The notes below the pieces were generated by a model. It did no database searches and was not told the origin of the DNA. It worked only from the letters and a program-made list of their open reading frames with translations. A stretch of DNA of 64,000 nt from Sphyrna mokarran (Eukaryota): the NCBI GenBank assembly GCA_024679065.1, contig JAGIQG010000028.1, positions 992,001 to 1,056,000 of the forward strand. Direction: 5' to 3'. This document shows, piece after piece, positions 3,859-60,499 of the stretch. Within the stretch, counting starts at the first letter, position 1. Each line of letters opens with the position of its first letter. A program made the position numbers and the translations under genes.

Positions 3859-4186
3859 CTTGGGTTCATGTCACACTATCTGTAACCCACATGACTTGCC
3901 TGGGCTTGCAAAATCTCACTAACTGTCCTGTCTGAAGACAATACACATCTCTTTAACCTATGCTTAACGCTCTCTCCACTCAAATTGTCTGTACCTTTAA
4001 GAGTTGATTGGCTGTAAACATTTGCATTCCAATCATTATTCTGTAGATTGAGTTGTGTCTTTCTATGCCTTGTTTGTGAACAGAACTCCCATTCACCTGA
4101 TGAAGGAGAAGCACTCCGAAAGCTAATGGTATTTGTTACCAAATAAACTTGATGGACTTTAATTTGGTGTTGAGACTTCTTACTGT
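3859..4186 (+). mobile_element. Inverted Penelope pseudo-LTR (ORF C-terminus plus 3' UTR) at the 5' end of the minus-strand element
   Basis: Starts with LGFMSHYL*, the Penelope ORF end, in the orientation opposite to the adjacent RT; contains a hammerhead motif and aataaa; homologous copies at 6692, 20640 and 60379. Confidence 0.85.
4094..4128 (+). ncRNA. Minimal type I hammerhead ribozyme motif (Penelope-associated)
   Basis: cac-CTGATGA-a-GGAG-aagca-CTCC-GAA-AGCT-A-atg: intact core boxes, 4-bp stem II, palindromic AGCT stem III; one mismatch in stem I. Confidence 0.75.
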
Positions 4187-5334
4187 ATCACTATTTCATT
4201 AGTGCCTGAAGATTTTCGTAGATTCATCAATTTTAAAACAGTTTTTACTTCTGGTATCAGAATGTTTGATCCATCATTTGCCTTTATATCTTGAGGACTT
4301 CTTCAGTTTGGGGCAATGCACAATTCACTTTTATATTCTATCTTTCTGCTGCTATATCCCTTCCAAACCCTTTACCAGCTTTGTATTTTATGTGCCTATT
4401 ATCTGTTGTTATTCTTTTCTTCTGTCAAAGATTTTACCTTTTGATGTTTAATTCACATGGTTTGCTTTCATTTCTGCTCCAATTCTTCATCCTCATTACA
4501 TCATTTCTTGTTAGCTGTCTATGTGCTTTCTTTCTGTTTTCAGTTTCATCATATTAAATGTGTTCCTTTTCTTTCATCTCATTAAGCTCTCATCTCTCAC
4601 CCATCCTTGTCTCTTTCTCTTTTCTAGTTTGGTAAGATTTCCTTTGCAGAGTATTCCATATTCTCTTTCACATATTTCCATTTCTTTTTAATTTCTGTTT
4701 ATTCTGATTCCTTGATCCTGAAACAGTCATGCTGCTTTTTTACTGTAAGAGTGAATCTTTCTCTCTTATTTTCTCATCCTGCCATCTGTTAAGATCTGAA
4801 CAGTTACATGTCTTTTTTTGTATTTTCAGTTTTGACTTATCTTTGCCACGAGGAGACAATGACCTGAGTTTACATCCACCCCGGATTACAGTATAAAATG
4901 CTGTTTCAGCATCACATTGTCTATTTGATTTCTATACACATCACCTATTCTTTCGAATTGTTTCAAGGTTAATCAAATCAGACCCAATCACCATCAGATC
5001 ACTTCCTTGACAAAACTGTATCAGTCTTTCTCCTCTCTCATTTTATAATGTGAGGTCATTCTGACTAATATATGTTCTTTTACCAATTTTATTCACTTAT
5101 TATAATTACATCAGTAGATCTGACAAAAGCACTTCAAGATGTCACCATAAAATGCCTCCATTTCCTGCTCACTTATCTTGTGGAGTTATAAACTTGAGTA
5201 AAAACCATCCTTTGAGTAAAAAAGATCCTTTGATCTTAATCACAATCCTTCTTTCTGAAAATGACCAATAAACTAATCTCTTATTTCTTTTGGTTATTGG
5301 GATTCCTACTCCATTCCTGTTTCTCTTTCTAATA

Positions 5335-5470
5335 AAAGAGGAATAAGGGAATATGGGGAACAAGTGGGGAGATGGATTAAAGACCAGGGAGAGATCAGCC
5401 ACGATCTGATTGAATAGCGGAGCAGGCTCTAAGCACTGAGTCCGCCTACTTCTCCTAATTCCTATGTTTC
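5335..5470 (+). mobile_element. CR1 3' UTR remnant
   Basis: 'agatcagccacgatctgattgaatagcggagcaggctc...cctacttctcctaattcctatgtt'. Confidence 0.75.
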
Positions 5471-5802
5471 TCACCTCCCAAGAAATATGCAATTCTTCTT
5501 TTCCATCTGACTAGATTCTAACCATCTTCCTTCTGCAAGTCTGAGTGAACCAACACAGTGTCTAACATCACCTGCATTCAGTCACTGAGCTTCCTACCTT
5601 ATATGAAAGTTGAAGAATAGGAGATATAGGAGAGGTTTGCTCCCTACAGCTGGATGTATTGTAAGGAGTGGCAGGGGAGGAGAAGACCTTGCACAATGAT
5701 CTAACCAACACATTTATTACAAAGTTGACTTAACCTCACAGGAGAGGTCAGCTTCTGAACCCATTACACTCACCGGAAGAGGTTGCTTCTTTAGGATAGG
5801 AG

Positions 5803-6089
5803 CATAGAACATTACAGCACAGTACAGGCCCTTCGGCCCTCGATGACCTGTGAAACCAATTTAAAGTCCATCTAACCAATACTATTCCAATATCATCCAT
5901 ATGTTTATCCAATGACCATTTAAATGTCCTTAAATCCAGTACTGTTGCAGGCAGGGCATTCCACGTCCTTACTACTCTCTGAGTAAAAGAACCTACCTCT
6001 GATATCTGTCCTATATTTATCACCTCTCAGTTTAAAGCTATGTCCCCTCGTGCTAGCCATCTCCATCTAAAGAAAAAGGCTCTCACTGT
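5803..6089 (-). mobile_element. CR1 LINE 3' end
   Basis: FTQRVVRTWNALP...LDKHM, with a 'catagaacattacagc' tail. Confidence 0.9.
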
Positions 6090-6381
6090 ACTCCCAGGAC
6101 CAAGGACTATAAAAGCTTTATATCAAATAGGAAAACTGATAATTGCAAACAGCTAATGGACAGACACAGCTACGGCTATATATTTAGAAAAATGACACAA
6201 AATATATGATTTACTTAAATACATGTTGACAATGTTGCAATTACACTTCAAGCTCAAAGCTACTTCCAAAAACTATAAAACTAAAAATCATCTATTTCTT
6301 TTCCCTTTATTTCAACATTTTTTTAACAACTATTTTGCTGGCAAAGTATGAAGTACCAATGCAGAACCAGCCAAAAGATAC

Positions 6382-6910
6382 ATGCAAAGGTGCTTCATAA
6401 GAGAGTTACAAAGCACCATTTAACAATGAACCACATAAGACAGGTGACCAAAAGCTGGATCAATGTTAGGGAGAGTGAGGTAGAGAAACAGAGAGGTTAA
6501 GGGAGAGATTGCCAGCTCAGGCAGCTGAAGGCACAGTCACCAAGGATGGGACAATTCATATCAGGGATCCTGAAGTGGGCGGAATGAGAAGTATGCAGAG
6601 ATCTGGGAGGCTTGTGGGAAGATTAGAGAGGCAGAGGCCATGGAAAACATGAAAACAAGGATAAATATTTTGAGATGAACTTGTTCTTCAACTGTAAGAA
6701 TACCAGGTTAAAGTCCAGCAGGTTTAGTCAGAGAGCGCTGTTCCTTCATCAGGTGAGTGACTCATCTGAAGGTGCAACACTGAATCCAAGTAGACCTGCT
6801 GGACTTTAATCTGGTGTTGTGAGACTTCTTACGTTGCTCACCCTAGCCCAACACCAACATCTCCACCTGGTTCTTTGACTGGCAGCTGAAGAGTGAGCAG
6901 GGAGAAATTG
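6382..6910 (-). mobile_element. L2-like LINE remnant, interrupted by a Penelope mini-element
   Basis: 'caggtgaccaaaagct', 'ggcagctgaaggcac' and 'gaaaacaaggat' motifs; similar 3' ends at 38970 and 40660. Confidence 0.6.
6692..6867. mobile_element. Palindromic Penelope mini-element (two pseudo-LTR ends head to head)
   Basis: ccaggttaaagtccagcaggttta (6703-6726) is inverted relative to tagacctgctggactttaatctgg (6791-6814); centre caggtgagt-g-actcatctg. Confidence 0.8.
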
Positions 6911-7961: not shown

Positions 7962-7976
7962 TCTATCCAGAGTCCC

Positions 7977-8332: not shown

Positions 8333-9790
8333 ACGTGTGAAGCTCCCTCCCACTCCCCGACTTGGCAGCAGCGTCAGCGGGCGGGGTGTGAGCCTGGAGC
8401 CGGGAGCTGGGAGCCGGGCAGCCGCTGCCAGTCTGTGCCGGGCTCCGGCTGGGAGCGAGCAGAGCGGCAGCGGCTCCCGGAATAGCCGCTCTTCCCGCCG
8501 TATTCCCGGCTCCCGGCTCCATTCTCCCGGGCTACCCCGATCCGGTCTCCCCCCTGCCCAGGTCTCCCTCTCCCCTCCTCCCGGTCCCGGTGCCCTCTCC
8601 CCCGGGCTCAGCCCCGGTGCTCTCCCTCTCCCGGGTCCCCGGCAGGATGTTCCCCTGGAGAAGCGGGAAGGCGGCTCTGCTGGAGGAGGAGCGGGCCCGG
8701 GGAGGGAAGCGGCTGGCGGCGGCGCTGGGTTTGTCCCCGCTGCTGGCGGCGTTGCTGCGGGCCGCTCCCGGGGCCTGGGGCCGCTGCTCTCCGGGCCGCC
8801 TGGGCAGCGCCTTCCGCCGGCGGCGCCAGAAGCTGGAGCTGACGGCCGAGGACCCGAGTTACAGCGCCTGGTATCTGGGCAGCGCGGTGACTCTGGCGGG
8901 CCGCGGCGAGGGCTGCTGCCGGGAAGCACTGGGCCGGATCTGGGCCCGGAGCTGGCAGGGGGCAGCCGGTACCCGGGTCCAGCTCAGCATCGGGCCGCAC
9001 GGCCTCCGTATGGGCCAGTCGGAGCAGAGGGGCCGAGAGGCCGCCGCCCACCTCTATCTGCTTCACCGCATCAGTTACAGCGCGGCGGAGCCGCAGCGCG
9101 GCCGCCTCTTCGCCTGGGTTTACCGGCACCAGCTCCGCCACAAGGCCGTGGTGTTGCGCTGCCACGCCGCGCTGCTTTCCCGGGCCGAGCAGGCCCAGGC
9201 CCTGGCCCGCCTGCTCCGCCAGGCCTCCGCCGCCGCCTTCAGCCACTTCCAGCGCCTTAAGCGGCAGGACGACGCCCGGCACCGGCAGCAGCAGCGGCTC
9301 GGGGAGCTCTCGGTGCCCCGCGTCCCCCTCCGGAGGCTCCTGAACGGTCAGTGTCCGTACCGTCCCCCGGCCGAGCGCAGCGGCCAGCGCCTCGGCTCCA
9401 TCGCCGAGGATGTGCAGGGGGAGGAGGCGGAGGAGAGCAGCTACCAGCCGCCCGCAGACATCAGCGGCATCGCCCGGCAAATCCACCGCTGCAGCATCGG
9501 GCACGGAGTCAGAGTGAGCAGCCTGCCCTCCGGAGACAGCCGCTCCTTCCCCCGGCACCAGGCAGCCTGAGCCCCGGGCTGCAGAGCGAGAGCGCCGCAG
9601 CCGGAGCCGCACTCACACCGGGAGCAGCCTCAGCCTCAGCCCGTGTCCGAGTGAGGAATCTCCCGGAGACTTACAGACAGCGGCGGCGGCAGGAGCAGCA
9701 ATCCCGTCCCCAGGCATCAGCACCGACTTCCGAACACCCAGAGAGGCAAACCTCCATCAATCCGCCTGCAGCTAAACCCCCCACCCCCGG
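8330..9790. promoter_or_regulatory. CpG island covering the promoter and CDS of the FAM43B-like gene
   Basis: Very high GC and CpG density against a CpG-depleted, AT-rich background; TGACGT (8331-8336), TTGGCA (8362-8367), CGTCA (8372-8376), GC box GGGCGGGG (8379-8386); no TATA box seen. Confidence 0.85.
8647..9570 (+). CDS. FAM43B: Protein FAM43B-like (single coding exon, PTB/PID-like domain), 307 aa
   Basis: ATG at 8647 with A at -3. MFPWR start, RQKLEL..EDP.Y..WYLG.AVTL, GPHG.RM, FAWVYRHQ.RHKAVVLRCHA, F.RLKRQ.D.RH, PLRRLLNGQC.YRPP, RL.SI.E and an acidic tail all match FAM43 proteins as I know them; HQ.RHKAVVL is B-type. Orthology versus paralogy is not proven. Confidence 0.9.
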   Translation: MFPWRSGKAALLEEERARGGKRLAAALGLSPLLAALLRAAPGAWGRCSPGRLGSAFRRRRQKLELTAEDPSYSAWYLGSAVTLAGRGEGCCREALGRIWARSWQGAAGTRVQLSIGPHGLRMGQSEQRGREAAAHLYLLHRISYSAAEPQRGRLFAWVYRHQLRHKAVVLRCHAALLSRAEQAQALARLLRQASAAAFSHFQRLKRQDDARHRQQQRLGELSVPRVPLRRLLNGQCPYRPPAERSGQRLGSIAEDVQGEEAEESSYQPPADISGIARQIHRCSIGHGVRVSSLPSGDSRSFPRHQAA

Positions 9791-13596: not shown

Positions 13597-13860
13597 GTGT
13601 GGAACTGTAAGAATTCCAAAGTGTATATTGGCCAATGAAGGTAGGCTTGTGGTATAGTGTGATAGAGAGCCCCCTGCCATATTTTTCAATTAGTACATCG
13701 GAAAAGGGAGTTCATTTTACTGCTCAATTTCAAAGGTGAATTTGAGTATAGGATGGAGCCAATTAAAATATGTAGGTGCAGATTTAAATGTAGCAAACGT
13801 ATCATCAACATATTGGAAAAAAAGCTAGAGGTGGGATTGTTTCCCCTTAGTATTCTTGTG

Positions 13861-13894
13861 TGTTCCGATGAGTGCAGGATGAAAAGTTTCAACA
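13861..13894 (+). ncRNA. Degenerate minimal hammerhead motif, second family
   Basis: tgtt-CCGATGA-gtgcaggat-GAA-aagtttc-aaca: stem I tgtt/aaca pairs, one core substitution; sister copy at 28365. Confidence 0.45.
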
Positions 13895-14459
13895 ACGTCT
13901 CTTTTTTTCATCCATATGCTGTTTTAAGATCATCAACAATTATAATAGATGCCCCCCCTCACCCAGCCTCCACAGCACACACACAAAAAACACAATTGGC
14001 TAAATTACACAGAATTATTACTAATCTCAGTGAATTAAAACATGACCCATAGCAACCAGAATGATAGGTAAAGACAGCGCCAACACTACAAATAGATGCA
14101 AAAAGTGGCGACTCATCAATTTTCTTCTCGCTTGAAACGTGAGCACTGCTGGCAAGGCCACCAGTTATGATTAATGATGATCTGATCTAATGGCTGTAAA
14201 GATAGACATGGCATAGAGTGAAGGTAAAGGCCCATCAACAAATGCCAGCAGCAGCACTTATAAACCATTGTATCCAAATTAAAATAATTGGTATTCTTGC
14301 AAGGAAAGTCCAATAAAATACTGAGTATGCAGCACTGCTCACTGAGCTAAAGAGGATCACATTTCACAGGTGCAGTGAATTTGCATTTCGAAATCTGTTC
14401 TCCAAAGTCCAAATAAATGAAAAGTCAGCTTCTTTCAAAATAAAGATTAATAAGCAAGA

Positions 14460-16832: not shown

Positions 16833-17082
16833 TTGGTCAAAGCAATAACTGGATGCTTGGGAAATACAACACTGATAGAGAATTGTCCTTGTTCAGTAAA
16901 TATGGTCTCAAATCTCTCTCCATGAAGTATCAACTATGATTTAAATACACCTGGACATTCTTATCAGGCAGATGCTTGCAATAAGGTCAACATTTGATTG
17001 ACATGGTAGAGTTCAAAAGATTCCCAAGCTCTGGACAGTTATGATCTTACCAGCTGGAGCTGAAATGTTCCAATTATTTTCA

Positions 17083-17188
17083 GCTGTGATGAAGGGTCAT
17101 CCACTTTCCTCCACAGATTCTGACAGCCTTGGTGAAATTTGACACATTTCCTATTTTTGTTTCAGATTCTGCAGTATTTTGCTTTTAT
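17083..17188 (+). mobile_element. Penelope-type terminal repeat remnant
   Basis: 'tgatgaagggtcat...ctccacagat...ttttgtttcagatt..gcagtattttgctttta'. Confidence 0.6.
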
Positions 17189-20639: not shown

Positions 20640-20845
20640 ATGTAGAGATGCCGTTGTTGGACTGGGATGGGCACAGTAAGGAGTCTCACAACATCAAGTT
20701 AAAATCTAACAGGTTTATTTTGCAAACACGAGCTTTGGGAGTGCTGCCTCTTGGTCAGGCAAGTGGACAGTTGGGTTCACAAACACAGCATATATAACCA
20801 TATCTATAGAGAGAGTTTGTGTCTATACATGCCCTGGTTGTTTGC
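20640..20845 (-). mobile_element. Penelope pseudo-LTR with a mutated hammerhead, plus a short inverted piece
   Basis: Reverse complement of 4050-4186 plus the 'ccagtccaac..ggcatctc' extension; 20813-20843 is the same repeat in + orientation. Confidence 0.8.
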
Positions 20846-24018: not shown

Positions 24019-24603
24019 GTTCATCCAGAAAACAACAAATGAACTTACTTCAGAAAATAAGTCAAAGAAAAAGGTTTAATAAATTAATTTCATTATTCCA
24101 ATACTTGGGGCCATACCCTGGCCAATACAAGTTTCCCACAATTCCCATCTGCTTTCTAGGTCAGCTGACCCTCAGAGCATGTTCCCATTGGTTACATTAT
24201 AACAATGGTGGGAGTGTGGGAGGTGTGAATTGTTGGTGTAGGCGGGAGATGAGCTTCCTCTAGCACTTCCCAACACTTCTGTGTTTCTGTGGCCCTTTAC
24301 AAAAATTTTACAAAAATGGGCCAATGCATAGAAATTTCAAATCTAAAACCAGGAAATTCTGGAAACGCTGAGAAAGTCAGACAGTATCTATGGAGATAGA
24401 AATAGTGACTGAGTGACAGGAGGTAGAGGGTAATGTTTAATGGATGTTTTTGGGGCTGGAGATTTGTTGTGGAGTTCCCTCAGGATCACTATTGGGGCCC
24501 TTCCCTTTCCCAATTATTTGTAGTCACATGAACCTCGGTGCAAAGGACACAATTTCAAAAATTTGTGGACAGATGAATCTTGGAAGCATTGAAAACTGAG
24601 GAG

Positions 24604-26019: not shown

Positions 26020-26259
26020 TTCATACAGTGAGTGGTTAGGATCTGGAATGTACTGTCTGAGAGTGTAGTGGAGACAGATTCATGCAGCGAGTGGTTAGGA
26101 TCTGGAATGTACTGTCTGAGAGTGTAGTGGAGATAGATTCACACAGCGAGTGGTTAGGATCTGGAATGCACTGTCTGAGAGTGTAGTGGAGATAGATTCA
26201 CACAGCGAGTGGTTAGGATCTGGAATGTACTGTCTGAGAGTGTGGTGGAGACAGATTCA
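26020..26259 (+). repeat. 59-bp tandem repeat x4 derived from CR1 coding sequence
   Basis: Unit cacagcgagtggttaggatctggaatgtactgtctgagagtgtagtggagatagattca. Confidence 0.97.
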
Positions 26260-26454: not shown

Positions 26455-26570
26455 ATTGATCTGAAATATTAATTCTGTTTTCATTCACAGATGCTGCAAA
26501 ACCTGTTGAATATTTCCAGCATTTTTATTTCTAGTTCAGATTTCCAGCATCTAAAATATTTTATTTTTTA
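26455..26570 (+). mobile_element. Penelope-type terminal repeat remnant
   Basis: 'cacagatgctgc..acctgttgaatatttccagcatttt...tcagatttccagcatct'. Confidence 0.65.
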
Positions 26571-26774: not shown

Positions 26775-27486
26775 CACCACATAAATGTTTACACCTTTAT
26801 GACTATATCTGCTTCCTCTGGAATCTTTGGAAATTTAGAAGGATAGTTTGTAGTCATTGGAAAAATCTAGACATCAGCAAAGTTCCCATCTGTTCCTTAA
26901 CTAGAAACACAATTCTAGAAGTGTGAATACAGTTCATGATTTTATGCATTATTCCTACATTTGACAATTTCTCCAAATTGTGTGATAATGTATTCATCAT
27001 GCCTCAGTTGTCAGTTATGGTTCTTTGAAGTGGATTGGCAGTTCAAGGAGATGCTTGTTAAGTGAGGAGAGCAAGCTGTTCATACAGCCAACTTCATTGC
27101 ATAGCAACCAATCAGGTGAGAAAAGTCAGTAATAAAGGTCAGTGGGGATTTATGTTGTCAACATTTAACGCAATCTTTCAAAAAAATCCTTTAAAACTTA
27201 AGGAGATAAAATACAGAAGCAGGAAAATAAAAAAAAGAGCTGACATTTTGAGTCCAGATGATGCTTTGTCAAAACTAACATATATTATCATTTGGGTTTA
27301 CACTCTGACTCACTTGCATTTCCTAGAAGCTATAAACATTCGTACCCTGGGACCTGTCCCTCTGCAAAAGAAAGGAAGATATCTGGTGATTGTGTCTTTT
27401 TGAATTAAACACGCATAGGGGTCGCTAGTTCCCTGGTACCTTCTCCATGGCAACACCTTGACCAGGCAGAATTGATGTACCTACCA

Positions 27487-28302: not shown

Positions 28303-28876
28303 CAATCAGTATTTTTTTCTCAAGCAATCTGTTGCTCCCTTTGAAATTTAACATTCTTACATCTGACCTGATGAGTGTGCAGCAAAAAGCTTCAACAGCA
28401 AGTATTATTTTGCATTATTCAAATTGTATAATTGATTTGCAAATTTAAGTTCTAAGAGCCCAAAATGCAATAATGGAATTAATGTTCATCCACTGCAAGA
28501 TATCCTTGTGAACTATCTAACAAGTATGTCCAAAAATTCTGTTTTACACTAATATTGCAGTTGTGTATTACTAAAAGGAAATTAAAATAGCCTCAAGGCA
28601 TTGTATCATATTGCTAAATCATTGAGATTTATTTCTGTGTACAATACATGCCTGCTACGTTATTCCCCATAACAGTCGTGAAATGAAACCTAATATTGTT
28701 CAGGTCAAACCATCGAATGTGAACCTTTCAGGTTATATCTTCTTGTCTGATTGAGTCATTTTGCTGTTGTCACTCCCATAGATGACCAAGAACTGAATAA
28801 TACAATAAAAATCTCTCTTAAAAACAAAATATTAAAGATGCTGGAAATCTGAAATATAAGCAGAGAAAGGGGAACT

Positions 28877-31041: not shown

Positions 31042-31140
31042 AACAAAAGCAGAAAATGCTGGAAAATCCCAGTAGGTCTGACAGTATCTGTGAAGAGAAA
31101 ACACGGTGAATATTTCGAGTCTGGGTGACTCTTCATAAAG
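31042..31140 (-). mobile_element. Penelope-type terminal repeat with a hammerhead-like remnant
   Basis: Minus strand reads ctttATGA-a-GAGTC-accca-GACTC-GAAA, followed by 'cacagatactgtcagacct.ctg'. Confidence 0.7.
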
Positions 31141-34874: not shown

Positions 34875-35121
34875 TGCCAAGAGAAGTACCTGTTTGTTTC
34901 AGAGTGCAGGGTTTCAGTCATAATGTCTGGAATTTCCACAAGTGAGTGTGGGAGAGAAACCCTGTGAAATATTTCCCCTACAGCAACACTGAGTTGCACC
35001 TTATGGTAGTATGATTGTAATCTTTTTGGATTAAGTATCTATAAGGACCATTGCCTGAATGGGTTTTTATTTGTAAGGCTAATCAAATAAATATCTTTCA
35101 AGATAATATTCCATTACATTT

Positions 35122-36697
35122 GGATGTGTTAGACCTGTTAAATGCTATCAAGGTAGACAAGTCGCCGGGACCGGATGGGATGTACCCCAGGTTATTGTGG
35201 GAGGTGAGGGAAGTGGTTGCAGAGCCCCTGGCGATGATCTTTGCGTCATCCATGGAAACGGGAGAGGTTCTGGAGGATTGGGGGATTGTGGATGTGGTTC
35301 CTATCTTTAAGAAAGGGAACAGGGATAGTCCAGGAAATTACCGACTGGTGAGTCTGACTTCAGTGGTTGGTAAGCTGATGGAGAGGCTTCTGGGGGATAA
35401 GATTTATGAATATTTGGAGAAGTTTGGACTGATTAGAAATAGTCAGCATGGTTTTGTCAAGGGCAGGTCATGCCTTACGAGCCTAGTTGAGTTATTCGAA
35501 AATGTGACTGAACACATTGACGAAGGAAGAGCGGTGGACATAGTGTATATGGATTTTAGTAAGGCATTTGATAAGGTCCCCCATGCAAGGCTTCTTGGGA
35601 AGGTGAGAAGGCATGGGATCCAAGGGGCTTTGGCCTCGTGGATCCAGAACTGGCTTGCCCGCAGAAGGCAGAGAGTGGTTGTGGATGGGTCTTGTTCTGC
35701 ATGGAGGTCGGTAACCAGTGGATTGCCCCAGGGATCTGTTCTGGGACCCCTGCTGTTTGTCATTTTCATAAATGACCTGGATGAGGAAGTGGAGGGATGG
35801 GTTAGTAAGTTCGCCAACGTTACAAAGGTCGGTTGTGTTGTGGATGGTCTGGAGGGATGTGAAAAGTTGTAGCGGGACATAGACAGGGTGCAAGACTGGG
35901 TGGAGAAGTGGCAGATAGACTTCAACATGGATAAATGTGTAGTGGTCCATTTTGGCAGGAATAATGGGCTGAAGGAGTACAATTAAGGGGTAGCTGTGTT
36001 GTAGAGCAGAAGGATCTCTGGGTCTGGGTCCATAGGACTCTTAAATCAGCCTCGCAGGTGGAGGAAGTGGTCAAGAAGGTGTACGGTGTACTGGCCTTCA
36101 TTAATCGAGGAATAAAGTTTAGGAGTCAGGGGTTAATGATGCAGCTCTATAAGACTCTTGTCAGACCCCAGTTGGAGTATTGTGCGCAGTTCTGGTCGCC
36201 TCATTATAGGAAGGATGTAGAGGCTATTGAGAGAGTGCAGAGGAGATTTACAAGGATGCTGCCTGGATTGGGAGGCAGGCCTTATGAAGATAGGTTGAGG
36301 GAGCTGGGACTCTTCTCACTGGAGAGACGTAGGTTGAGAGGCGACCTGATAGAGGTTTATAAAATGTTGAGAGGAATAGATAGGGTGGACTCTCAGAGAC
36401 TATTTCCCCGAGCTGAAATGGTCACTACGAGAGGACACAGATTTAAGGTGCAGGGAAGCAAATACAAAGGAGATGTCAGGGGTAGGTTTTTCACTCAGAG
36501 GGTGGTGAGTGAATGGAACCGACTGCCGTCGGAGGTTGTTGAGGCAAACTCACTGGGGTCTTTTAAGAGACTTCTGGATGAGTACATGGAAAAGAATAGG
36601 ATAGGGGGTTATAGATAGGTCTGTGGATTGGTAGATGTGATCGGCGCAACTCGTGGGCCAAAGGGCCTGTTTGTGCTGTATTATTCTATGTTCTATT
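35122..36697 (+). mobile_element. Young 5'-truncated CR1/HER1-like LINE (subfamily C), ORF2 broken
   Basis: [42 protein letters not shown]; FADD mutated to FANV; stop at 35870; ttctatg tail. Confidence 0.97.
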
Positions 36698-47441: not shown

Positions 47442-48006
47442 TAGAACATAGAACATAGAACATTACAGCACAGAACAGGCCCTTCGGCCTTCGATGTTGT
47501 GCCGACCAAAATAAAAAGCAATGCCCCTCCAAACTAAACCATTCCCTTCTCTTCCATATACTTATCAACTAACCTCGTAAACGCCACCAAACTTGGCGCA
47601 TCTACAACTGCTGCAGGCAGGGCATTCCACTCCCGAACCACCCTTTGGGTAAAGAACCTACCTCTGATATCCGTCCTATAACTATCACCCCTTAAATTAA
47701 AGCTGTGTCCCCTCGTGCTAGCTTTCTCCATCCTAGGAAAAAGGCTATCACTGTCCACCCTATCTAAACCTCTAATCATCTTAGATGTTTCGATCAGGTC
47801 CCCTCTTAGCCTCCTCCTTTCTAACGAAAACAACCTCAAATCCCTCAGCCTCTCCTCATAAGACCTGCCCTCCATACCAGGCAACATCCTGGGAAACCTC
47901 CTCTGTACCCTCTCCAATGCCTCCACATCTTTCTTATAATGCGGGGACCAGAACTGCACACAATACTCCAAGTGCGGCCGCACTAGAGTTTTGTACAGTT
48001 GCAAAA
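47442..48006 (-). mobile_element. Young CR1 3' end (subfamily B)
   Basis: Nearly identical to 53876-54436; (catagaa)n tail. Confidence 0.95.
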
Positions 48007-48170
48007 CTTTCTCCCCATAACCCTTAATTCCCTTCTCTATCAGAAATCTATCTACCCGTGACTTAAACATATTCAGTGAGGTAGCCTCCACCACTTCAAT
48101 GGGCAGAGAATTCCAGAGACTCACCACCCTTTGAGTGAAGAAGTTTCTCCTCAACTCCATTCTAAACATT

Positions 48171-49207
48171 CCAGGTTATTGTGGGAGGTGAGGGAAGTGG
48201 TTGCAGAGCCCCTGGCGATGATATTTGCGTCGTCCATGGAAACGGGAGAGGTTCCGGAGGATTGGAGGATTGTGGATGTGGTTCCTATCTTTAAGAAAGG
48301 GAACAGGGATAGTCCAGGAAATTACCGACTGGTGAGTTTGACTTCAGTGGTTGGTAAGCGGATGGAGAGGCTTCTGAGGGATAAGATATATGAACATTTG
48401 GAGAAGTTTGGACTGATTAGAAATAGTCAGCATGGTTTTGTCAAGGGCAGGTCATGCCTTACGAGCCTAGTTGAGTTATTCGAAAATGTGACTGAACACA
48501 TTGACGAAGGAAGAGCGATGGACGTGGTGTACGTGGACTTTAGTAAGGCGTTTGATAAGGTCCCCCATGCAAGGCTTCTTGGAAAGGTGAGAGGGCATGG
48601 AATCCAAGGGGCTTTGGCCTCGTGGATCCAGAACTGGCTTGCCGGCAGAAGGCAGAGAATGGTTGTGGATGGGTCTTGTTCTGCATGAAGGTCGGTAACC
48701 AGTGGAGTGCCCCAGGGATCTGTTCTGGGACCCCTACTGTTTGTCATTTTCATAAATGACCTGGATGAGGAAGTGGAGGGATGGGTTAGCAAGTTTGCCG
48801 ATGATACAAAGATCGGTGGTGTTGTGGATGGTCTGAAGGGATGTCAAAAGTTGCAGCGGGACATAGACAGGGTGCAAGACTGGGCGGAGAAGTGGCAGAT
48901 GGACTTCAATGTGGATAAATGTGTAGTGGTCCATTTTGGCAGGAATAATGGGATGAAGGAGTACAATATAAGGGGTAGGTGTCTTAGCTGTGTTGTAGAG
49001 CAGAAGGATCTCGGGGTCCGGGTGCATAGGACTCACTGTGAGTTGTTGAGGTGAACTCACTGGTGTCTTTTAAAAGACTTCTGGATGAGTGTATGGAAAC
49101 GAATAGGATAGGGGGTTATAGATAGGTCTGTGGATTGGTAGATGTGATCGGCGCAACTCGTGGGCCGAAGGGCCTGTTGTGCTGTATTGTTCTATGTTCT
49201 ATGTTCT
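48171..49207 (+). mobile_element. Young CR1 (subfamily C), 5'-truncated, with a stop and an internal deletion
   Basis: Near copy of 35187-36040; FADD intact; TGA at 48686; jumps to the 3' end near 49035; TSD taaac (48163-48167 / 49208-49212). Confidence 0.95.
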
Positions 49208-51287: not shown

Positions 51288-52961
51288 CATAGAACATTAC
51301 AGCGCAGTACAGGCCCTTCGGCCCTCGATGTTGCGCCGGCCAGTGGACCCTCCAACCTAAACTATTCCAATATCATCCATATGCCTATCCACCAAACATT
51401 TGAATGCCCCCAAAGTAGGCGAGTCCACTGCTGCTGCAGGCAGGGCATTCCACGCTCTCACCACCCTCTGTGTGAAGAACCTGCCTCTGACATCTGTCCT
51501 GTAACTACCACCTCTTAATTTAAAGTTATGTCCCCTCGTGTTGGTCATCACCATCCGAGGAAAAAGGCTCTCACTATCCACCCTATCCAATCCTTTGATC
51601 ATCTTATACGCCTCAGTTAGGTCACCGCGTAACCTTCTTCTCTCTAATGAAAATAACCTCAGGTCCCTCAGCCTTTCCTCATACGGCCTTCCCACCATAC
51701 CAGGCAACATCCTGGTAAACCTCCTCTGCACCCTTTCCAATGCTTCCACATCTTTCTTATAATGCGGCGACCAGAACTGTACGCAATACTCCAAGTGCGG
51801 CCGCACCAGCGTTTTGTACAGTTGTAACATAACCTCACGGCTCCTAAATTCAATCCCTCTACCAATAAAAGCTAACACATCGTACGCCTTCTTAACAACT
51901 TTATCAACCTGGGTGCCAACTTTCAAAGAGCTATGTACTTGTACCCAAGATCCCTCTGCTCGACAACACTATTAAGGGTCCTTCCATTAGCCCTATATTT
52001 CATATGCCTGTTATTCCTACCAAAGTGAATCACCTCACACTTATCCGTATTGAATTCCATCTGCCACCTCACGGCCCAGCTCTGCAACCTATGTCCCTCT
52101 GCAAACTGTAACATCCATCCTCGCTGTCTACAACTCCCCCCACTTTGGGATCGTCAGCAAATTTACTAATCCAACCCTCTACACCCTCATCTAGGTCATT
52201 TATAAAAATGACAAACAGCAGTGGCCCCAAAACAGATCCTTGAGGTACACCACTTGTAACTGCACTCAGGTTGAATATTTCCCATCAACCACCACCCTCT
52301 GTCTTCTATCAGCTAGCCAATTCCTAATCTAAACTGCTAAATCACCTTCAATCCCATGCATCTGCACTTTCTGCAGTAGCCTAACATGGGGAACCTTATC
52401 AAACGCTTTGCTAAAATCCATATACACTACATCAACTGCCTTACCCTTATCTACCTCTTTGGTCACCTCCTCAAAAAAACTCAATAAGGTTTGTGAGGCA
52501 CGACCTACCTTTCACAAAACCGTGCTGACTATCCCTAATCAATTTATTTCTCTCTAGATGCTTATAAATCCTATCCTTATAATTCTTTCCAAGACCTTGC
52601 CCACAACAGAAGTCAGGCTCACCGGTCTATAATTTCCAGGATGGTCCTTACTCCCCTTTTTGAACAAAGGGACAACATTTGCCATCCTCCAGTCTTCCGG
52701 CACTATACCTGTAGCTAACGACGACATGAAGATCAAAGCCAAAGGCTCTGCAATCTCCTCTCGAGCCTTCCAGAGAATCCTAGGGTAAATCCCATCTGGC
52801 CCAGGGGACTTATCAATTTTCATACCCTCAAAATTCGCTAACACCTCCTCCTTATGAACCTCAATGCTACCCAGTCTACAACCTGGTATCGCAGTATTCT
52901 CCCCGACAACACTGTCTTTCTCCTGCGTGAATACTGATGAAAAATACTCATTCAGTGTCTC
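51288..52961 (-). mobile_element. Young 5'-truncated CR1 (subfamily D), with frameshifts
   Basis: LNEYFSSVFT, KSPGPDG, NYRPVSLTS, FADD; TSD aatgaa (51282-51287 / 52962-52967). Confidence 0.96.
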
Positions 52962-53387
52962 AATGAAGATTACAAATTGAGAGCAGAGAATTGCTGTAAT
53001 CGTACACAGCAACTGTAATCCCAAGTGGTTCCTTGTGAGAGTCTCTCTCACAACATCCAGCTAAATTTGACTTGCTTAACTTCACACTTGATCTAAACTA
53101 TGCGATGTGTGACAATCCTAAATTGAAACTGTTTGACATCAGCACAAATCGTATGGGGTGACTGACCTATAATCATGTGGACTCATCACAGCTTCTCACT
53201 GTGGTTGCAGAGATCTCTAAATCGCTTCATTTCACTAACCAATCGGCATCTGCTTTTGCAAAATAATTTCCAACATTGGTCGAGGTAATAAAACACAACT
53301 GTAAATATTGTCAGAACCTTTAGGCCCAAAACACTGCTGCTTCGAACCCAGAAGATTGTACAACCTGTCTCTTTACCCAGCCAGTAA

Positions 53388-53875: not shown

Positions 53876-56287
53876 CATAGAATATAGAACATAACAGCGC
53901 AGAACAGGCCCTTCGGCCTTCGATGTTGCGCCGACCAATTAGGAAAAAGCAATGACCCTCTAACCTAAACCATTCCCTTTTTGTCCATAAACTTATCTAC
54001 TAACCTCTTAAACGCCACCAAACTTGGCGCATCTACAACTGCAGCAGGCAGGGCATTCCATACCCTTACCACCCTCTGGGTAAAGAACCTACCTCTGACA
54101 TCCGTCCTATAACTACCACCCCTTAATTTAAAGCTATGTCCCCTCGTGCTAGCTTTCTCCATCCTAGGAAAAAGGCTATCACTGTCCACCCTATCTAAAC
54201 CTCTAATCATCTTATATGTTTCAATAAGGTCTCCTCTTAGCCGCCTTCTTTCTAACGAAAACAACCTCAAATCCCTCAGCCTCTCTTCATAAGACCTGCC
54301 CTCCATACCAGGCAACATCCTGGTAAACCTCCTCTGTACCCTCTCCAATGCCTCCACATCTTTCTTATAATGTGGGGACCAGAACTGCACACAATACTCC
54401 AAGTGCGGCCGCACTAGAGTTTTGTACAGTTGCAACATGACGTTGCGGCTCCGAAATTCAATCCCCCTACCAATAAAAGCTAAGACTCCGTATGCCTTCT
54501 TAACAACCTTATCGACTTGATTGCCAACTTTCAGGGATCTATGCACATATACACCAAGATCCCTCTGTTCTTCAACACTATTAAGAGTCCTACCATTAGC
54601 CCTGTACTCTACACACTTGTTATTCCTGCCAAAGTGAATTACCTCACACTTTTCCACATTAAACTCCATTTGCCACCTCTCGGCCCAGCTCTTCAACTTG
54701 TCCAAGTCCCTCTGCAAACTATAACACCCCTCTTCACTATCTACCACTCCACCGACTTTAGTGTCATCTGCAAATTTACTAATCCATCCTTCAATACCCT
54801 CATCCAGATCATTTATAAAAATTACAAACAGCAGGGGCCCCAAAACAGATCCCTGAGGTACACCACTTGTAACCGAACTCCACGATGAATATCTTCCATC
54901 AACCACCACCCTCTGTCTTCTATCTGCTAGCCAATTCCTAATCCAATTAGCTAAATCACCCTCAATCCCATACATCTGCATTTTCTGCAGAAGCCTTCCA
55001 TGGGCCACCTTATCGAACGCCTTACTAAAGTCCATATATACCACATCAACTGCCTTACCCCCAACCACCTCTTTGGTCACTTTTTCAAAAAACTCAATAA
55101 GGTTAGTAAGGCACGACCTACCCTTCACAAAACCATGCTGACTATCCCCAATCAATTCATTTCTCTCTAAATAACTATAAATCCTATCCCTAATAATTCT
55201 CTCCAATACTTTGCCCACAACAGAAGTAAGACTCACTGGCCTATAATTCCCTGGAAAGTCTCTCTTCCCCTTCTTGAACAATGGGACCACATTCGCTATC
55301 CTCCAGTCTTCCGGCACTAAACCCGTAACCAACGACGACCTGAAGATCAGAGCCAGAGGCTCTGCAATCGCCTCTCTCGCCTCCCAGAGAATCCTAGGGT
55401 AAATCCCGTCCGGCCCAGGGGACTTATCTAACTTCAAACCCTCAAGAATATCTAGCACATCCTCCTTATCTACTTCAATACTTTCCAGTTTGCAACCCTG
55501 TATCCCAGTGTTCTCCACAACTACATTTACATCTCCCTGCGTGAATACCGAAGAGAAATATTTATTCAGTGCCTCTCCAATCTCTTCAGGCTCCACGCAC
55601 AACTTCCCACTGCTGTCTATGACTGGCCCTAATCTTGCCCTAACCAATCTTCTATTCTTAACATATCTAAAGAAAGCTTTAGGATTCTCCTTGATCCTAT
55701 CAGCCAAAGTCTTCTCGTGTCCCCTTTTAGCTCTCCTCAACTCACTCTTTAGCTCCCTCCTGGCTAATCTATAGCTTTCCAGTGCACTAACTGAGCCTTC
55801 AAGCCTCATCCTGACATAAGCCTCCTTTTTCCTTTTAACCAGCGAATTAACTTTTTTAGTACACCATGGTTCCCTTACTCGACCATTTCCTCCTTGCCTG
55901 ACAGGGACATACTTATCAAGGACTCGCAGTAGCTGCTCCTTGAATAAGCTCCACATTTCAGATGTTCCCAGTCCCTGTAGTTTCCTAGTCCAACCTATGC
56001 ACCCTAATTCCCTCCTTATGGCCTCATAATTACCATTCCCCCAGCTATAACTACTGCCCCCAGCTTCATGCCTATCCCTATCCATCACTAAGGTGAACGT
56101 AACCGAATTGTGGTCACTATCACCAAAATGTTCACCAACTTCCAAGCCTAACACCTGGTCTGGCTCATTGCCCAGCACCAAATCCAATGTAGCCTCACCT
56201 CTAGTTGGCCTATCTACATACTGAGTCAAAAAACCTTCCTGCACACTTTGTACAAAAACTGACCCCTCTAACGAGCTAGCACGCTGG
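53876..56287 (-). mobile_element. Very young 5'-truncated CR1/HER1-like LINE (subfamily B)
   Basis: Uninterrupted ORF2 fragment, 3' UTR, tail and a 4-bp TSD gtaa (53872-53875 / 56288-56291). Confidence 0.98.
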
Positions 56288-56298
56288 GTAATTACCAC
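53965..56298 (-). CDS. CR1 ORF2 fragment (APE C-terminus + RT), 777 open codons, lacking its true N-terminus
   Basis: [58 protein letters not shown]; the first few codons are flanking DNA. Confidence 0.9.
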   Translation of the reverse strand: MVITQRASSLEGSVFVQSVQEGFLTQYVDRPTRGEATLDLVLGNEPDQVLGLEVGEHFGDSDHNSVTFTLVMDRDRHEAGGSSYSWGNGNYEAIRRELGCIGWTRKLQGLGTSEMWSLFKEQLLRVLDKYVPVRQGGNGRVREPWCTKKVNSLVKRKKEAYVRMRLEGSVSALESYRLARRELKSELRRAKRGHEKTLADRIKENPKAFFRYVKNRRLVRARLGPVIDSSGKLCVEPEEIGEALNKYFSSVFTQGDVNVVVENTGIQGCKLESIEVDKEDVLDILEGLKLDKSPGPDGIYPRILWEAREAIAEPLALIFRSSLVTGLVPEDWRIANVVPLFKKGKRDFPGNYRPVSLTSVVGKVLERIIRDRIYSYLERNELIGDSQHGFVKGRSCLTNLIEFFEKVTKEVVGGKAVDVVYMDFSKAFDKVAHGRLLQKMQMYGIEGDLANWIRNWLADRRQRVVVDGRYSSWSSVTSGVPQGSVLGPLLFVIFINDLDEGIEGWISKFADDTKVGGVVDSEEGCYSLQRDLDKLKSWAERWQMEFNVEKCEVIHFGRNNKCVEYRANGRTLNSVEEQRDLGVYVHRSLKVGNQVDKVVKKAYGVLAFIGRGIEFRSRNVMLQLYKTLVRPHLEYCVQFWSPHYKKDVEALERVQRRFTRMLPGMEGRSYEERLRDLRLFSLERRRLRGDLIETYKMIRGLDRVDSDSLFPRMEKASTRGHSFKLRGGSYRTDVRGRFFTQRVVRVWNALPAAVVDAPSLVAFKRLVDKFMDKKGMV

Positions 56299-57409
56299 AA
56301 ACAGGCATTCCAGAGTGTTCCAGGCAGTGGGGGTAAAGGCAGCAGATGGTCCCTGTTATGCTGAACCTCTGTTCTTTGAGTCCTTGGAAGCTTGTTCCTT
56401 GTCTGAGCGATGTCACAAAAACTTGTGGGACAAGCAGGTTGGCTCAGAGTCAGTTCTGCCTCCAAGGAGTTGAGCAGAATGTAACACCTTGTGTAAGGGC
56501 CACAGACTATCCAAAAAAAATTTGAACAGCAGCTTTCCGTATCGGAGCTGAGACATTTCGAGAAAAATAGAGGTGAGTTTGGAAACAGAAGGTACAAGAA
56601 TTATTTTTTCACCATCTTTCGGGATTTGCTCCTTCTATAAATTCTGAATTTCTACATTTTTTGGTTGCAGCAGCTGTTATTACAGATTGGATCTCAGCTG
56701 CACTGTGGAGAGTGAGGACATTCTGCATTTCAGTCCAATCATTCAGATTTTACTGCCAGTTAGGAGAGACAAATCTCAGGAAAAGTCACCGAATGAAATA
56801 GAATTCTAAAGAAGGAGCACACGTCTTTCCTTCGTTTGGATGCTGAACAATTAGTTTGAGTGAAATGCCCCTATCTGTGGGATCTGGTGACTGGTTCAGG
56901 AATGGGAGAGTGTAATTATCATCTTATTAAAACAGAATGGGCCATTGTCCAATCATCTTCAATCTGGTGGTCTCTAATTTTAAACTATAGGAGACTAGGA
57001 CGACCAGTTTAAGTGAACAGATTCACACTGCTGTCTTCTGGAGCTGTTTTTCCATTGAACCTGTGAACTGATCAGGACAGAGGGAGTTATTCTCCTTGCC
57101 AGACAGACTGTATCAGATACAGAAACTGCTGTCACAGAGGCTCAGTGTAGCAGGTGTGCTCCTTACTCACAAACCTTGGCCTCAGCTCCTTAATGTCTCT
57201 GGTGCAGATTCTACAGAAACCCAAAATGTCAAAGCTGCCAGCCAGATTGTTTATACCATTTCCCAGTGCAGCCCAGGGGATGTGTGATGATATTGTGTGT
57301 GTATGTGTGTGTCAGCAGTGTGCAGAGTGGGAACGATTGTGACCATGTTTAACTCATGCTGCTCTGATGCACAGATCATCATTTCTAACTCAGTTAACTC
57401 CACTTCTAA

Positions 57410-57545: not shown

Positions 57546-57784
57546 ACACCCAGGAAGTTCGGGCCTCAGGCTGCAGCTGCTGAATATTTGAGTTAATCTC
57601 CAGCAGCACTGACCTTCCAGTACGGAACTCACCCCGCTTTCTCACAATCAGGCATTTCAGAGTCTTTGAAGCCAGGGTTTTAAAAGCAGCATCTCAACCC
57701 TAGACCTCCTGCTAAATATCAATCCCTTGGCTGTGATGTGCTGAGTGTGAAACACACTGTAGTGTTTGTATTCCACTGGAATTT

Positions 57785-58200
57785 ACAGCATAGAAACAGG
57801 CCATTCGGCCTATCGAGTCTGTAACAAATCTCTGAAAGAGAATCTCACCCAGACCCTATCCTGTAACCCCGTGTATTTAACTCACTAAATCCCACTAACG
57901 TACGCACTTTAGAAAAAAAGAGAAAATTTGGTACTGCCAATCAATCTAACACACACATCTTTGGACTGTGGAAAGAAACTGAAGGAAGAAACTGAAGGTT
58001 ACCCTCATATTGTGGTCAAGAAAAGTGAAGGAGGCTCGTGTGGAAGTCAAACACTGACATATTTGGGCGGCATGGTGACAGAATGATTAGCACTGCCAGT
58101 CTCACAGTGCCAGGGACACGGTTGATTGTGGGAGGAAACCGGAGCACGTGGAGGAAACTCAACACAGAGACAGGGAGAACATGCAAACTCCGCACACTCA
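57785..58200 (-). mobile_element. Rearranged HE1 SINE pieces
   Basis: Tail and core on the minus strand (57785-57990), head on plus (58065-58122), core on minus (58127-58198). Confidence 0.7.
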
Positions 58201-58207
58201 CTGAGAC

Positions 58208-58580
58208 CACAAAGATATAAAATCCTGATGGGATTGGACAGGCGAGACGTGGGAAGAATTTTCCTGATGTTGGGCAAGTGCAGGACTAGGAGTCACAATC
58301 TAAGAATAAGGGGTAAGCCAATCAGGACTGAGATGTTGTGAACCTGTGGAGTTCTCTCCCACAGAAAGCTGTTGGGGACAGTTCATTAGATAAGTTCAGG
58401 AGGGAGCTGGATGTGGCTCTTGTGCTAAAGGAATCGAGGGGAATGGAGAGAAAGTGGGAATGCGATACTGAAAGGGCATGATCAACCATGATCATATTGA
58501 ATGGTGAGGCTTGAAGGAAGCCTCACCATTCCTCACCAAGAGGAATGGCCTCTTCCTGCATCTTTTATCCATGTTTCTAT
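58208..58580 (+). mobile_element. CR1 3' end
   Basis: YKILMGLDR, RTRSHNLRIRG and a CR1 tail; same subfamily as 37418-37858. Confidence 0.88.
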
Positions 58581-59143
58581 AAGCTCTGCCAGCAACAGAA
58601 TAGCTGCTCTCAAAGATGTGACTCTTAGATGTAAAATTACAGTGTCCAGATCTTGCTTGGTTGGTCTGCAGTTGAGAATTATTTGATATCTATAATTCAT
58701 TCATTTCACCAGGTTGTTAGATCTATGCTAATAAGGAGAAGAAGGAATATGATTCATATTCCACTTCTTGGACATATACAGAAATGGCTAAGCAGTAATT
58801 TGTTATCCAGAATGATCTTTCTTGGCTAAACCAAATAAATAGAAAATAGCACTTAACACTTACAATGTGTACAACACTTCTGCTTGATGTATTGTGCAAT
58901 TGTCAACAATGGGGAACTGAGCGGAGTAGCTCACACTAATGAAGTCAGTGTTATGGACATGAAAGAGACCAATTGTGATTTTGGTCCAAGGGGATAGAAA
59001 CTTCATGTGCAATCAGTGATGCTTTGTGACAAATATTCAGGCCGTGATATCAACTTCAATAACATTGTTCTCCAGTAAGTCTAATCATCGGACCTTTGCC
59101 CATATGTTAGTGATGATCATATGGATTAGGAGCAGGAATAGGC

Positions 59144-59350
59144 CACTTGGCACCTTCAGACTCCACATCCTTTCAATAAGATTTGATTGTAACCCCAATG
59201 TCATGCTCCCAGCTAACTCAATATCCATTTACCACATTGCTAATCAAAAATCTAACTCAGATTTAAAAACATTCAAAGAATCTACTTCCACTGCCTTTTG
59301 AGGAAGTGAGTTCCAAAGTCTCAAGGCTCCTGAGAGAAGAAAACTCCTTA
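59144..59350 (-). mobile_element. Old CR1 3' tail
   Basis: Segment carries 'ttccactgccttttgaggaagtgagttccaaag'; its tail 'aggagcaggaataggcca' lies just left, at ~59128-59145. Confidence 0.7.
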
Positions 59351-60378
59351 TCTTTCAGTTCATGAATCCCTCCCCAAACTGTCTTGCTGTTAACTAGGTC
59401 TCTGAATTCTAATTCTCTCCCCAGTGCTACACTCCTCTCTGTACCTGTTCCCACCAATCTGTCCCTAAAGGCCAATATTTTATGATAACAGCCAAAAACC
59501 TTTCAATAGTTTGATTGTTTTCATGGAAACGACAAATCAAGCGTGAATCCAACAATCAAATGAAGGAGCAAAATGCATTTCCACCGGGAGAAAAGGCAAG
59601 AGCTCAGGGCCGAATCAAAGAGGCAGCCTGTACCCCAGTGCTCCTGTGGAAAATCTGTTCTGATTATTGCTCAGTGAGCCGTGACAATGAGGTGAATTTT
59701 CAACTCTTCCATCCAACACAAAAACCCAATTGCAGCAAAGGTGCTGGGCAATGTGATGCTACACTGTGTCATTGTAATGATGGCTGTGTTTCTCTGGGTT
59801 TACTATTAACCGTCCAGAGTGCCCACCCCCTCCTCCACCCACCTCATCCCTATCCCCAGTAAGTAAAATGTTGCTAACACCTCTGACTTCAATGGAAGCC
59901 TGGTTTTGCAGTGGGCTGGGTGAAGACTGCACATCTGTCCAGCTGCAGCTTCCTGAACAGGACTCAGCCACAAAGTGACTTCCTCAGTATTTGTGTGGGA
60001 TCTGCTCTGTTCCTGCGGACCACCAGCATTGCTGTTACTCCAGCTTCCTCGCCATCTGGGAGATTCAGTCCCAGGCCATCTCTTCCTTACCCTGTGAGGA
60101 GGATACTCAGCCAGTGAGGCTGAAAAAAGGGTCACTTTTTGAAGACAGAGATGAGGAATTTCTTCTTTCAGATGGTGCTGAATCTTTGGAATTCTTGAAA
60201 ATCATAAGAGTAAGGAGCAGGAGAGGCCCACTGGACTCATCGAGCCCAATCCAACATTCAGTAAGATCATGTCTCATCTGTCCCTATGTAACTCTTCATT
60301 CCATTCTTGATCAAAACCCTGTCTAACCCAGCCTTGAATATATTCAATAACCCAACACACACTGCTCCCTGTGGCAAA

Positions 60379-60499
60379 GATGTGGCAATGTCGGTATTGG
60401 ACTGGGGTGGGTACAGTAAGTTCTCTCACAATACCAGGTTAAATCCAACAGGTTTATTTGGAATCACAAGCTTTCAGAGCACTGCTCCTTCCTCAGGTT
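60379..60499 (-). mobile_element. Penelope pseudo-LTR end with a near-intact hammerhead motif (60465-60499)
   Basis: Minus strand aac-CTGAGGA-a-GGAGC-agt-GCTCT-GAA-AGCT-T-gtg, then aataaacctgttgga. Confidence 0.8.

Follow-up and report, generated by a model that had tools for sequence, protein, structure and literature searches.

Damaged minimal hammerhead motifs in a Sphyrna mokarran contig as probable decayed ends of three Penelope-like element lineages

The stretch of DNA analyzed here, called the window throughout, comprises 64,000 nucleotides (nt) of the Sphyrna mokarran genome (GenBank assembly GCA_024679065.1, contig JAGIQG010000028.1, positions 992,001 to 1,056,000 of the forward strand). 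The original prediction, made from the letters alone, had placed in it about ten minimal hammerhead ribozyme motifs of three types and attributed them to derivatives of Penelope-like elements (PLEs). We built profiles for the three motif types from their best genomic relatives (30 loci per type). All ten sites matched one of these family profiles, with position and strand in agreement and E values from 1e-48 to 4e-4; the weakest matches were those at 27232-27275 (E 4e-4) and 29635-29670, and the same three profiles gave no match in 10 shuffles of the window. A scan of the window with the Rfam covariance models returned no hammerhead family at E ≤ 10. No copy in the window passed a strict descriptor requiring the core, at least 3 bp of stem I, a stem II, a stem III that is palindromic, and an NUH site, compared with 5 in 600 kb of sampled sequence and none in 640 kb of shuffled sequence; the motifs as first quoted proved to be composites. 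All ten sites are true fragments of minimal type I hammerheads, and each of them is damaged. About six further fragments were found in the window by the same profiles. The PLE-related features are as follows, where pLTR is the pseudo-long terminal repeat, C3 gives the position of that core nucleotide, and lesions are given by hammerhead position.

60-114, minus, and 26462-26526, plus: pieces similar to 24328-24401.
2478-3859, minus: 5'-truncated body of a type 1 PLE (end of the reverse transcriptase [RT], linker, and GIY-YIG), frameshifted, detected by tblastn.
3858-4190, plus: type 1 pLTR and 3' untranslated region (UTR), inverted relative to the body at 2478-3859; C3 at 4097; first pair of stem I broken by G1.1>A; predicted cut after 4125.
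6690-6862, both strands: head-to-head pair of type 1 pLTR heads; minus arm 6690-6759, C3 at about 6752, GAAA half deleted; plus arm 6770-6862, core damaged.
13849-13916, plus: type 2 pLTR head; C3 at 13865, start about 18 nt earlier; U4>C and C11.1>U, stem III and G1.1 changed.
17079-17177, plus: type 3 pLTR head; C3 at 17086, start 7 nt earlier; C3>G, GAAA and stem III deleted.
20643-20841, minus: type 1 pLTR piece (20643-20802, minus) with a short inverted piece (20803-20841); C3 at 20759; G8>C and G12>C.
24328-24401, minus: 3' part of a type 3 pLTR without the core, found by profile.
27232-27275, minus: type 3 fragment like the U3-A8/GUC subfamily described below; C3 at 27272; G12>A.
27307-27486, plus: GIY-YIG end and 3' UTR of the type 2 copy at 28303-28414, of which it is the upstream part.
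28303-28414, plus: type 2 pLTR with TATA region and hammerhead; C3 at 28368; G12>A and G1.1>A, loop II changed.
29635-29670, plus: type 3 fragment with destroyed core (29639), inside a local inverted duplicate.
31034-31141, minus: type 3 pLTR head; C3 position 31139; C3>U and G5>U, stem I lost.
60384-60498, minus: type 1 pLTR head; C3 at 60496, start 2 nt earlier; boxes intact, C11.1>U, stem I of 2 bp.
60557-60664, plus: degenerate type 3 pLTR head beyond the ten noted, found by profile.

Many of these lesions are accounted for by CpG decay at C11.1-G12 and H17-G1.1. The copies at 4094 and 60465 had been singled out as the best preserved, which is not supported in a functional sense, both of them being damaged. 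Most motifs had also been described as lying in elements with no open reading frame (ORF), which does not hold for two of them. The 4094 motif belongs to a PLE insertion, of which it forms the inverted 5' piece; the body of this insertion is 2478-3859 on the minus strand, where tblastn with the 895-amino-acid (aa) ORF of a genomic relative, L155, aligned aa 406-866 at 68 to 78% identity. The 28368 copy extends upstream into the GIY-YIG end at 27307-27486; about 800 nt, among them a CR1-like piece, lie between the two. Two of the type 3 sites, at 29640 and 31125, lie in one inverted duplication (29563-29670 is a local inverted duplicate of 31108-31215, 86% identical) and are therefore probably a single insertion. 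The host of this insertion is another old dispersed repeat (29500-29625 and 31150-31215, also seen in L033-L044), which the type 3 copy entered before the local inverted duplication arose; the segment 29560-29720, used as a query, returned a different upstream repeat and not type 3. The segment 15775-15801 (minus) has the core boxes, matches no family profile, and was excluded.

The load of hammerheads in the window is ordinary for this genome rather than dense, the reverse of what had been proposed. Taking the density in 80 stretches of 10 kb (800 kb, at round coordinates of large contigs outside the window) as the expectation, we counted 12 profile matches of at least 20 bits in the window versus 10.2 expected (P = 0.32) and 9 core-covering matches versus 7.1 (P = 0.29). 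Extrapolation from that sample gives about 440,000 fragments, 310,000 of them core covering, in an assembly of 2.77 Gb that is rich in CR1-like long interspersed elements (LINEs). Genome-wide, exact core patterns numbered 27,110 for type 1 versus 0 in a reversed control, 313 versus 15 for type 3, and 12 versus 0 for type 2; these patterns differ in strictness. About 17 CpG-intact type 3-like cores, in two near-identical variants, cluster on one contig (G000:C446, about 32,000-4,050,000), possibly a young subfamily or a duplicated segment.

Type 1 loci were found by searching with a fragment of the window ORF (2594-3070). In 28 of the 29 other loci, the type 1 profile match lies 363 to 431 nt past the GIY-YIG match on the same strand. 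L155 is a near-complete type 1 element, with an inverted pLTR, a direct pLTR, the 895-aa ORF, and a 3' pLTR; its 5' and 3' pLTRs are 98% identical, and the ATG is 129 nt after C3. The ORF comprises an RT domain (Pfam RVT_1, E 1e-9), then a CX4CxxC linker, and then a GIY-YIG-type end, a domain that we recognized from reading the sequence, as this end has no Pfam match. Truncation at the 5' end, an inverted 5' copy, and an optional tail were all observed, as expected of endonuclease-positive (EN+) PLEs.

Covariation was assessed in 44 core-intact type 1 copies; given the kinship among copies, the shuffle fractions are not probabilities. In stem II, pair 10.3-11.3 is paired in 25 of 27 distinct stem-loops, compared with 13.1 in shuffles, none of 5,000 of which reached 25, while pairing at 10.2-11.2 is not above shuffles in the same 27. 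Pair 2.2-1.2 of stem I is Watson-Crick in 38 of the 44 copies, a value reached by 0 of 5,000 shuffles. Among young ORF-linked type 1 copies (n = 23), stem-loop II has a mean identity of 66%, versus 87 to 90% in the flanks. This hypervariable stem-loop II, at L108-L134 about 430 nt past the ORF end, keeps its pairing.

Copies of type 3 share upstream sequence to about 1,080 nt, as established by a stepwise upstream walk, and this sequence includes a degenerate GIY-YIG ORF, for which tblastn detected similarity to the L155 protein in L220 (E 1e-9, 23% identity). The ORF remnant has a linker of the CX2-5CxxC kind, as in type 1. In one type 3 subfamily with a GUC cut triplet (L353:8853, L165:7224, L293:2036, and others), U3 occurs together with A8 and C17 (8 of 10 copies with C17, versus 1 of 88 others), and the window copy at 27272 resembles this subfamily. 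A compensatory U3-A8 core is known from Schistosoma hammerheads (PMC4209133).

Upstream of type 2 lies a third GIY-YIG-like end, again degenerate. In 24 of 30 loci retrieved with its peptide, a count that includes the query's own locus and three partial matches, the type 2 profile match lies 90 to 370 nt past this end. No open frame longer than 210 aa occurs among the 150 type 2 ORF matches listed, the CX2-5CxxC linker was not seen in the type 2 ORF remnants, and a protein search with a 69-aa piece of the type 2 ORF returned no candidate. We looked for family consensuses without the core boxes or pairing and for types without a link to a Penelope ORF and found neither: the consensuses keep CUGANGA and GAAA, the stems covary, and each type is tied to a PLE ORF. 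The original prediction was right to call the motifs ribozyme-bearing Penelope derivatives.

The type 2 hammerhead differs in architecture from the other two. CpG-intact copies have a stem I of 5 bp, a stem II of 2 bp, no extra nucleotide separating position 9 from 10.1, and a 6-nt palindrome, AAGCUU. Loop II (5 nt) is wholly complementary to positions -12 to -8, and type 2 likely braces its 2-bp stem II by a 5-bp pseudoknot from loop II to the 5' flank; an alternative pairing of this sequence would be an inhibitory helix of 7 bp. Scanning metagenomes for the pattern yielded at least 120 stretches, of which 115 lacked a stem I of 3 bp and were attributed to chance. Among the remaining 5, two fit type 2, one was like a hammerhead of bacterial context, and two were doubtful. 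The first that fits, L479, has all five pseudoknot pairs in the same register as type 2, with three double changes, and the ORF end preceding it matches that of type 2 at 50 to 60% identity (E about 1e-8). The second, L402, has four pairs and one G-U, with two double changes, and the same TATA-initiator spacing as type 2; no PLE ORF lies upstream. Contigs of four sequencing runs at a type 2 locus carried the same loop and partner words and are uninformative on ends and expression. The lower divergence of the type 2 core (5.7%, versus 17% in the flanks) was not used as evidence, since many copies were core selected. Another metagenome motif, L413:701-727 (minus), is hammerhead-like, with the same 6-nt palindrome as type 2 and a possible loop II partner; in the large contig that carries it, it overlaps the end of an ORF of bacterial appearance.

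We next consider where the short copies begin and end. The statistics use copies not selected on their own family, window copies included, and the arms of inverted pairs count twice. Within -10 to +4 of C3, 5' ends pile up in 36 of 70 type 3 copies (flanking 15-nt bins, 3 and 7) and in 32 of 113 type 1a copies (6 and 7), corresponding to about 34 and about 24 independent events, respectively. A TATA-like box is found at -35 in 18 of 27 type 1a, at -34 in 9 of 24 type 3, and at -46 to -44 in 9 of 33 type 2 loci, and an initiator (Inr)-like A follows about 30 nt past it, at -6, -4, and -15, respectively. The short copies start downstream of the TATA box and hence are without it, while 44 of the 113 type 1a copies reach past -30 and have scattered 5' ends. 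Two clusters of 3' ends are seen, with a spacing of about 25 nt, resembling the PLE tail. Starts exactly at the cut site were found in 2 of 141 type 1 copies (+29) and 1 of 70 type 3 copies (+31), with one more seen by eye; there is no clear pile-up at this site in these 141 and 70 copies, a sample in which a few percent would be possible.

Two published observations bear on these ends. A TATA box and an Inr have been noted in the pLTRs of rotifer PLEs (PMC3846280). In the Anolis PLE, the pLTR-ORF junction contains two internal sites from which reverse transcription begins, the template is mainly uncut RNA, no RNA-seq reads are reported to end at the hammerhead site, and hammerhead cleavage requires the protein (PMC11167929). 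Taking these together with the ends observed here, we think it probable that the motifs are decayed pLTR ends of three autonomous PLE lineages, that the short copies are cDNAs running from the predicted start to the internal RT start of uncut RNA, and that type 2 is braced by a pseudoknot. A TATA/Inr promoter would start the RNA 4 to 15 nt before the catalytic core, and the PLE protein would prime within the pLTR-ORF junction, by analogy with the Anolis element. If a normal transcript were primed at its upstream pLTR, the product would be a head of 100 to 130 nt without a promoter, and fold-back of that head cDNA would give the head-to-head pairs. In an intact tandem element, the hammerheads of the two near-identical pLTRs would together make a double hammerhead with intercopy stems I and III, which would cut slowly and probably with the help of protein. 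Lone scattered copies, missing both promoter and partner, would be dead on arrival and then subject to CpG-driven decay.

Several points weigh against this interpretation. No peak of 5' ends appears in 28 type 1b copies, in which the TATA box is absent, and the sample of type 2 starts is 6 copies, with 1 of 12 core-selected copies starting near -15 by eye. In type 1a, 26 of the 32 peak copies are arms of inverted pairs, which lowers the number of independent events, and a 5' peak could arise without a start site through fold-back at a short palindrome. The type 3 start position also resembles a 3' splice site, and the outer group of 3' ends is near the profile's own end. Internal priming is known from the lizard Poseidon element, not from these families, and the start and cutting model is drawn here from DNA sequence. 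The ORFs found for types 2 and 3 are degenerate ends, none of them intact. As for the pseudoknot, covariation within this genome is not above independence (79 type 2 copies), its support comes from the two outside sequences L479 and L402, of which one is linked to a PLE ORF, and chance pairing, if G-U is allowed, is also seen in 5 of the 25 other matches to the pattern.

The fold-back and splice-site resemblances could be taken as the origin of the 5' pile-up itself, through template switching or fold-back at stem I palindromes or through a 3' splice site, with no transcription start involved. Inverted type 3 pairs are joined at the palindrome around AGCT, and palindrome self-priming has been proposed (PMC3846280). 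A branch-point-like word, a pyrimidine tract, and a YAG ending at stem I precede type 3, 30 nt before C3 in L205-L234, and the intron of Drosophila virilis Penelope ends at helix I (PMC4209133). However, an inverted piece of the same element lies upstream in 7 of the 36 type 3 peak copies and is absent from the other 29, an upstream exon common to the copies was not seen, and a TATA spacing of about 30 nt recurs in the three lineages and in L402. We regard this origin of the pile-up as unlikely.

The original prediction had instead made the short copies separate non-autonomous families, that is, SINE-like heads or palindromic units produced by short masters that use PLE proteins in trans. Such units would have fixed 5' and 3' ends and a length of 100 to 130 nt, as observed; the preponderance of head-to-head pairs among the type 1a peak copies (26 of 32) would fit them, and retrozymes have been argued to derive from PLE pLTRs (bioRxiv 10.64898/2026.07.22.740005). 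Against this, the flanks of the copies are unique and their junctions differ: DNA upstream of the start, inverted pieces aside, is common to another copy in 1 of 36 type 3 and 1 of 32 type 1a peak copies, a small sample in which no 5' end or junction of a family's own is apparent. The short copies carry no TATA box, their sequence is that of the autonomous pLTRs, the window holds no tandem array of the motif, and 44 of the type 1a copies extend past -30 with scattered 5' ends. A non-autonomous origin therefore appears quite improbable, and cDNA heads of autonomous elements remain our preferred reading.

The original prediction further held that each element has its own stem III, which could restrict dimer cleavage to like partners. 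A stem III of its own was confirmed for the three deep lineages, with the palindromes AGCU (type 1), AAGCUU (type 2), and ACGU (type 3), and on paper at most two contiguous stem III pairs form across lineages, versus four to six within a lineage. It fails within type 1, where 27 distinct stem-loop II sequences from all subfamilies share the one stem III, AGCU. On paper the lineages are likewise incompatible, whereas pairing of a type 1b core with a type 1a substrate is possible. In a double hammerhead, stems III and I both form between two copies (PMC4209133, PMC6466107). Since a pLTR in an intact element has its near-identical twin in the same transcript as partner, partner choice calls for no special explanation. 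The suggestion that differences in stems I and III were selected so that co-resident PLE families avoid cleaving each other in trans would account for the poor pairing across lineages, but it is very improbable in view of the compatibility of types 1a and 1b, of type 1 subfamilies that share AGCU and differ chiefly in stem-loop II, an intramolecular element (mean identity 66%, versus 87 to 90% for the flanks), and of the age of types 2 and 3, which look old and were probably not coactive with the young type 1. The same palindromes also occur in unrelated animals (PMC4209133, supplement). Lineage-restricted partner choice, as read from these pairings, is plausible as a consequence and weak as a selected function.

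Most of the system agrees with minimal hammerhead ribozymes of PLEs as described by Cervera and De la Pena in 2014 (PMC4209133). The type I topology, the core boxes, and G10.1-C11.1 are shared, as are the palindromic 15.2-16.2, the variable stem II, the U3-A8 core variant, and the occurrence of several families per genome, mostly as single truncated copies and with opposite-strand pairs. Consensus or intact copies of all three types show the type I order of CUGANGA, GAAA, and NUH, are palindromic at positions 15.1-16.1 with no stable stem III, and lie in a PLE pLTR. Types 1 and 3 also share the extra nucleotide between 9 and 10.1 and have a helix II of at least three pairs. Covarying helices I and II were found for type 1 and, solely via the two outside relatives, for type 2. 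Type 2 has neither the extra nucleotide nor the longer helix II, nor is it free of a predicted tertiary contact, and it is therefore a variant and not a typical minimal hammerhead; its helix II has 2 bp, whereas all 56 representatives in PMC4209133 have at least three pairs, and a review describes PLE hammerheads as being without tertiary contacts (PMC6155905). There is no shark row among those 56 representatives, and the 27,110 exact type 1 patterns here outnumber the motifs reported for coelacanth (about 4,000) and Xenopus (about 9,000), which were obtained by other methods (PMC4209133).

With the EN+ PLEs Neptune and Nematis (Craig et al. 2021, PMC8557442), these elements share the order of RT, linker, and C-terminal GIY-YIG, the pLTR hammerhead, and the pattern of 5' truncation, partial tandems, an inverted 5' copy, and an optional tail of 30 to 40 nt. 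A single RT and GIY-YIG ORF between pLTRs is present in type 1 (L155), and the CX2-5CxxC linker between RT and endonuclease that marks Neptune and Nematis is present in types 1 and 3. In the Anolis Poseidon element PAc (Frangieh et al. 2024, PMC11167929), the two RT starts at the pLTR-ORF junction explain the tail; PAc belongs to another clade, and its ORF begins inside stem II, whereas the L155 ATG is 129 nt past C3. The step from PAc-type internal priming to solo pLTR heads would be one of analogy. From motif style, types 1 and 3 may be Neptune-like and type 2 Nematis-like.

Pseudoknotted hammerheads with a short stem II (Perreault et al. 2011, PMC3088659), a form widespread among hammerheads as a whole that makes up about 40% of the representatives in that work, share with type 2 the 2-pair stem II and a helix that joins loop II to the side of stem I. 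Those examples are mostly bacterial, phage, or domesticated, while type 2 adds a loop-less palindromic stem III in a PLE pLTR. The non-long terminal repeat retrozymes (PMC7229834; bioRxiv 10.64898/2026.07.22.740005) are also short, noncoding, and PLE related with a type I hammerhead, but they are tandem units each with a hammerhead, whereas in the window the copies occur singly or inverted and are damaged, with no head-to-tail array and no complete copy. Our search of the literature, limited to the papers that could be read, found no printed shark or pseudoknotted PLE hammerhead. Lunse et al., who in 2017 reportedly found that small PLE hammerheads cleave as dimers, may cover the type 2 form.

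Other features of the window lie apart from the hammerheads. An uninterrupted GC-rich ORF at 8392-9570 (plus) encodes a PID_2 phosphotyrosine-interaction domain (E 1e-52) and is, we assume, FAM43-like. CR1-like LINE copies occupy 53965-56355 (minus), 35045-36618, 47534-49054, and 51357-53060, one of them with a 796-aa open RT frame, and a 59-nt tandem repeat at 26020-26259 (4 copies, 95% alike) resembles the end of a CR1-like ORF and contains no hammerhead. An upstream walk from L052 ended in an unrelated repeat of about 165 nt; an abundant repeat of about that length, unrelated to hammerheads and possibly a short interspersed element, was also seen at L176-L204:1501-1670.

As for the ten copies in the window, they are dead repeats of an ordinary kind, and the system they belong to is mostly known; the remaining interest lies in the type 2 variant and in the copy ends as a record of the PLE cycle. 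We lean slightly toward the wider proposal that a pseudoknotted PLE hammerhead lineage, placed at the RNA 5' end, extends from this genome to distant animals, and that hundreds of thousands of solo heads map transcription starts and priming in elements whose mobilized RNA is mostly uncut. The many young stem-loop II variants amount to a natural mutational scan of a minimal ribozyme, and the pseudoknotted minimal hammerhead, if true, would offer a simple test of whether a tertiary brace speeds slow ribozymes. A natural copy record as large as this one could address whether the RNA that is mobilized is cut or uncut.

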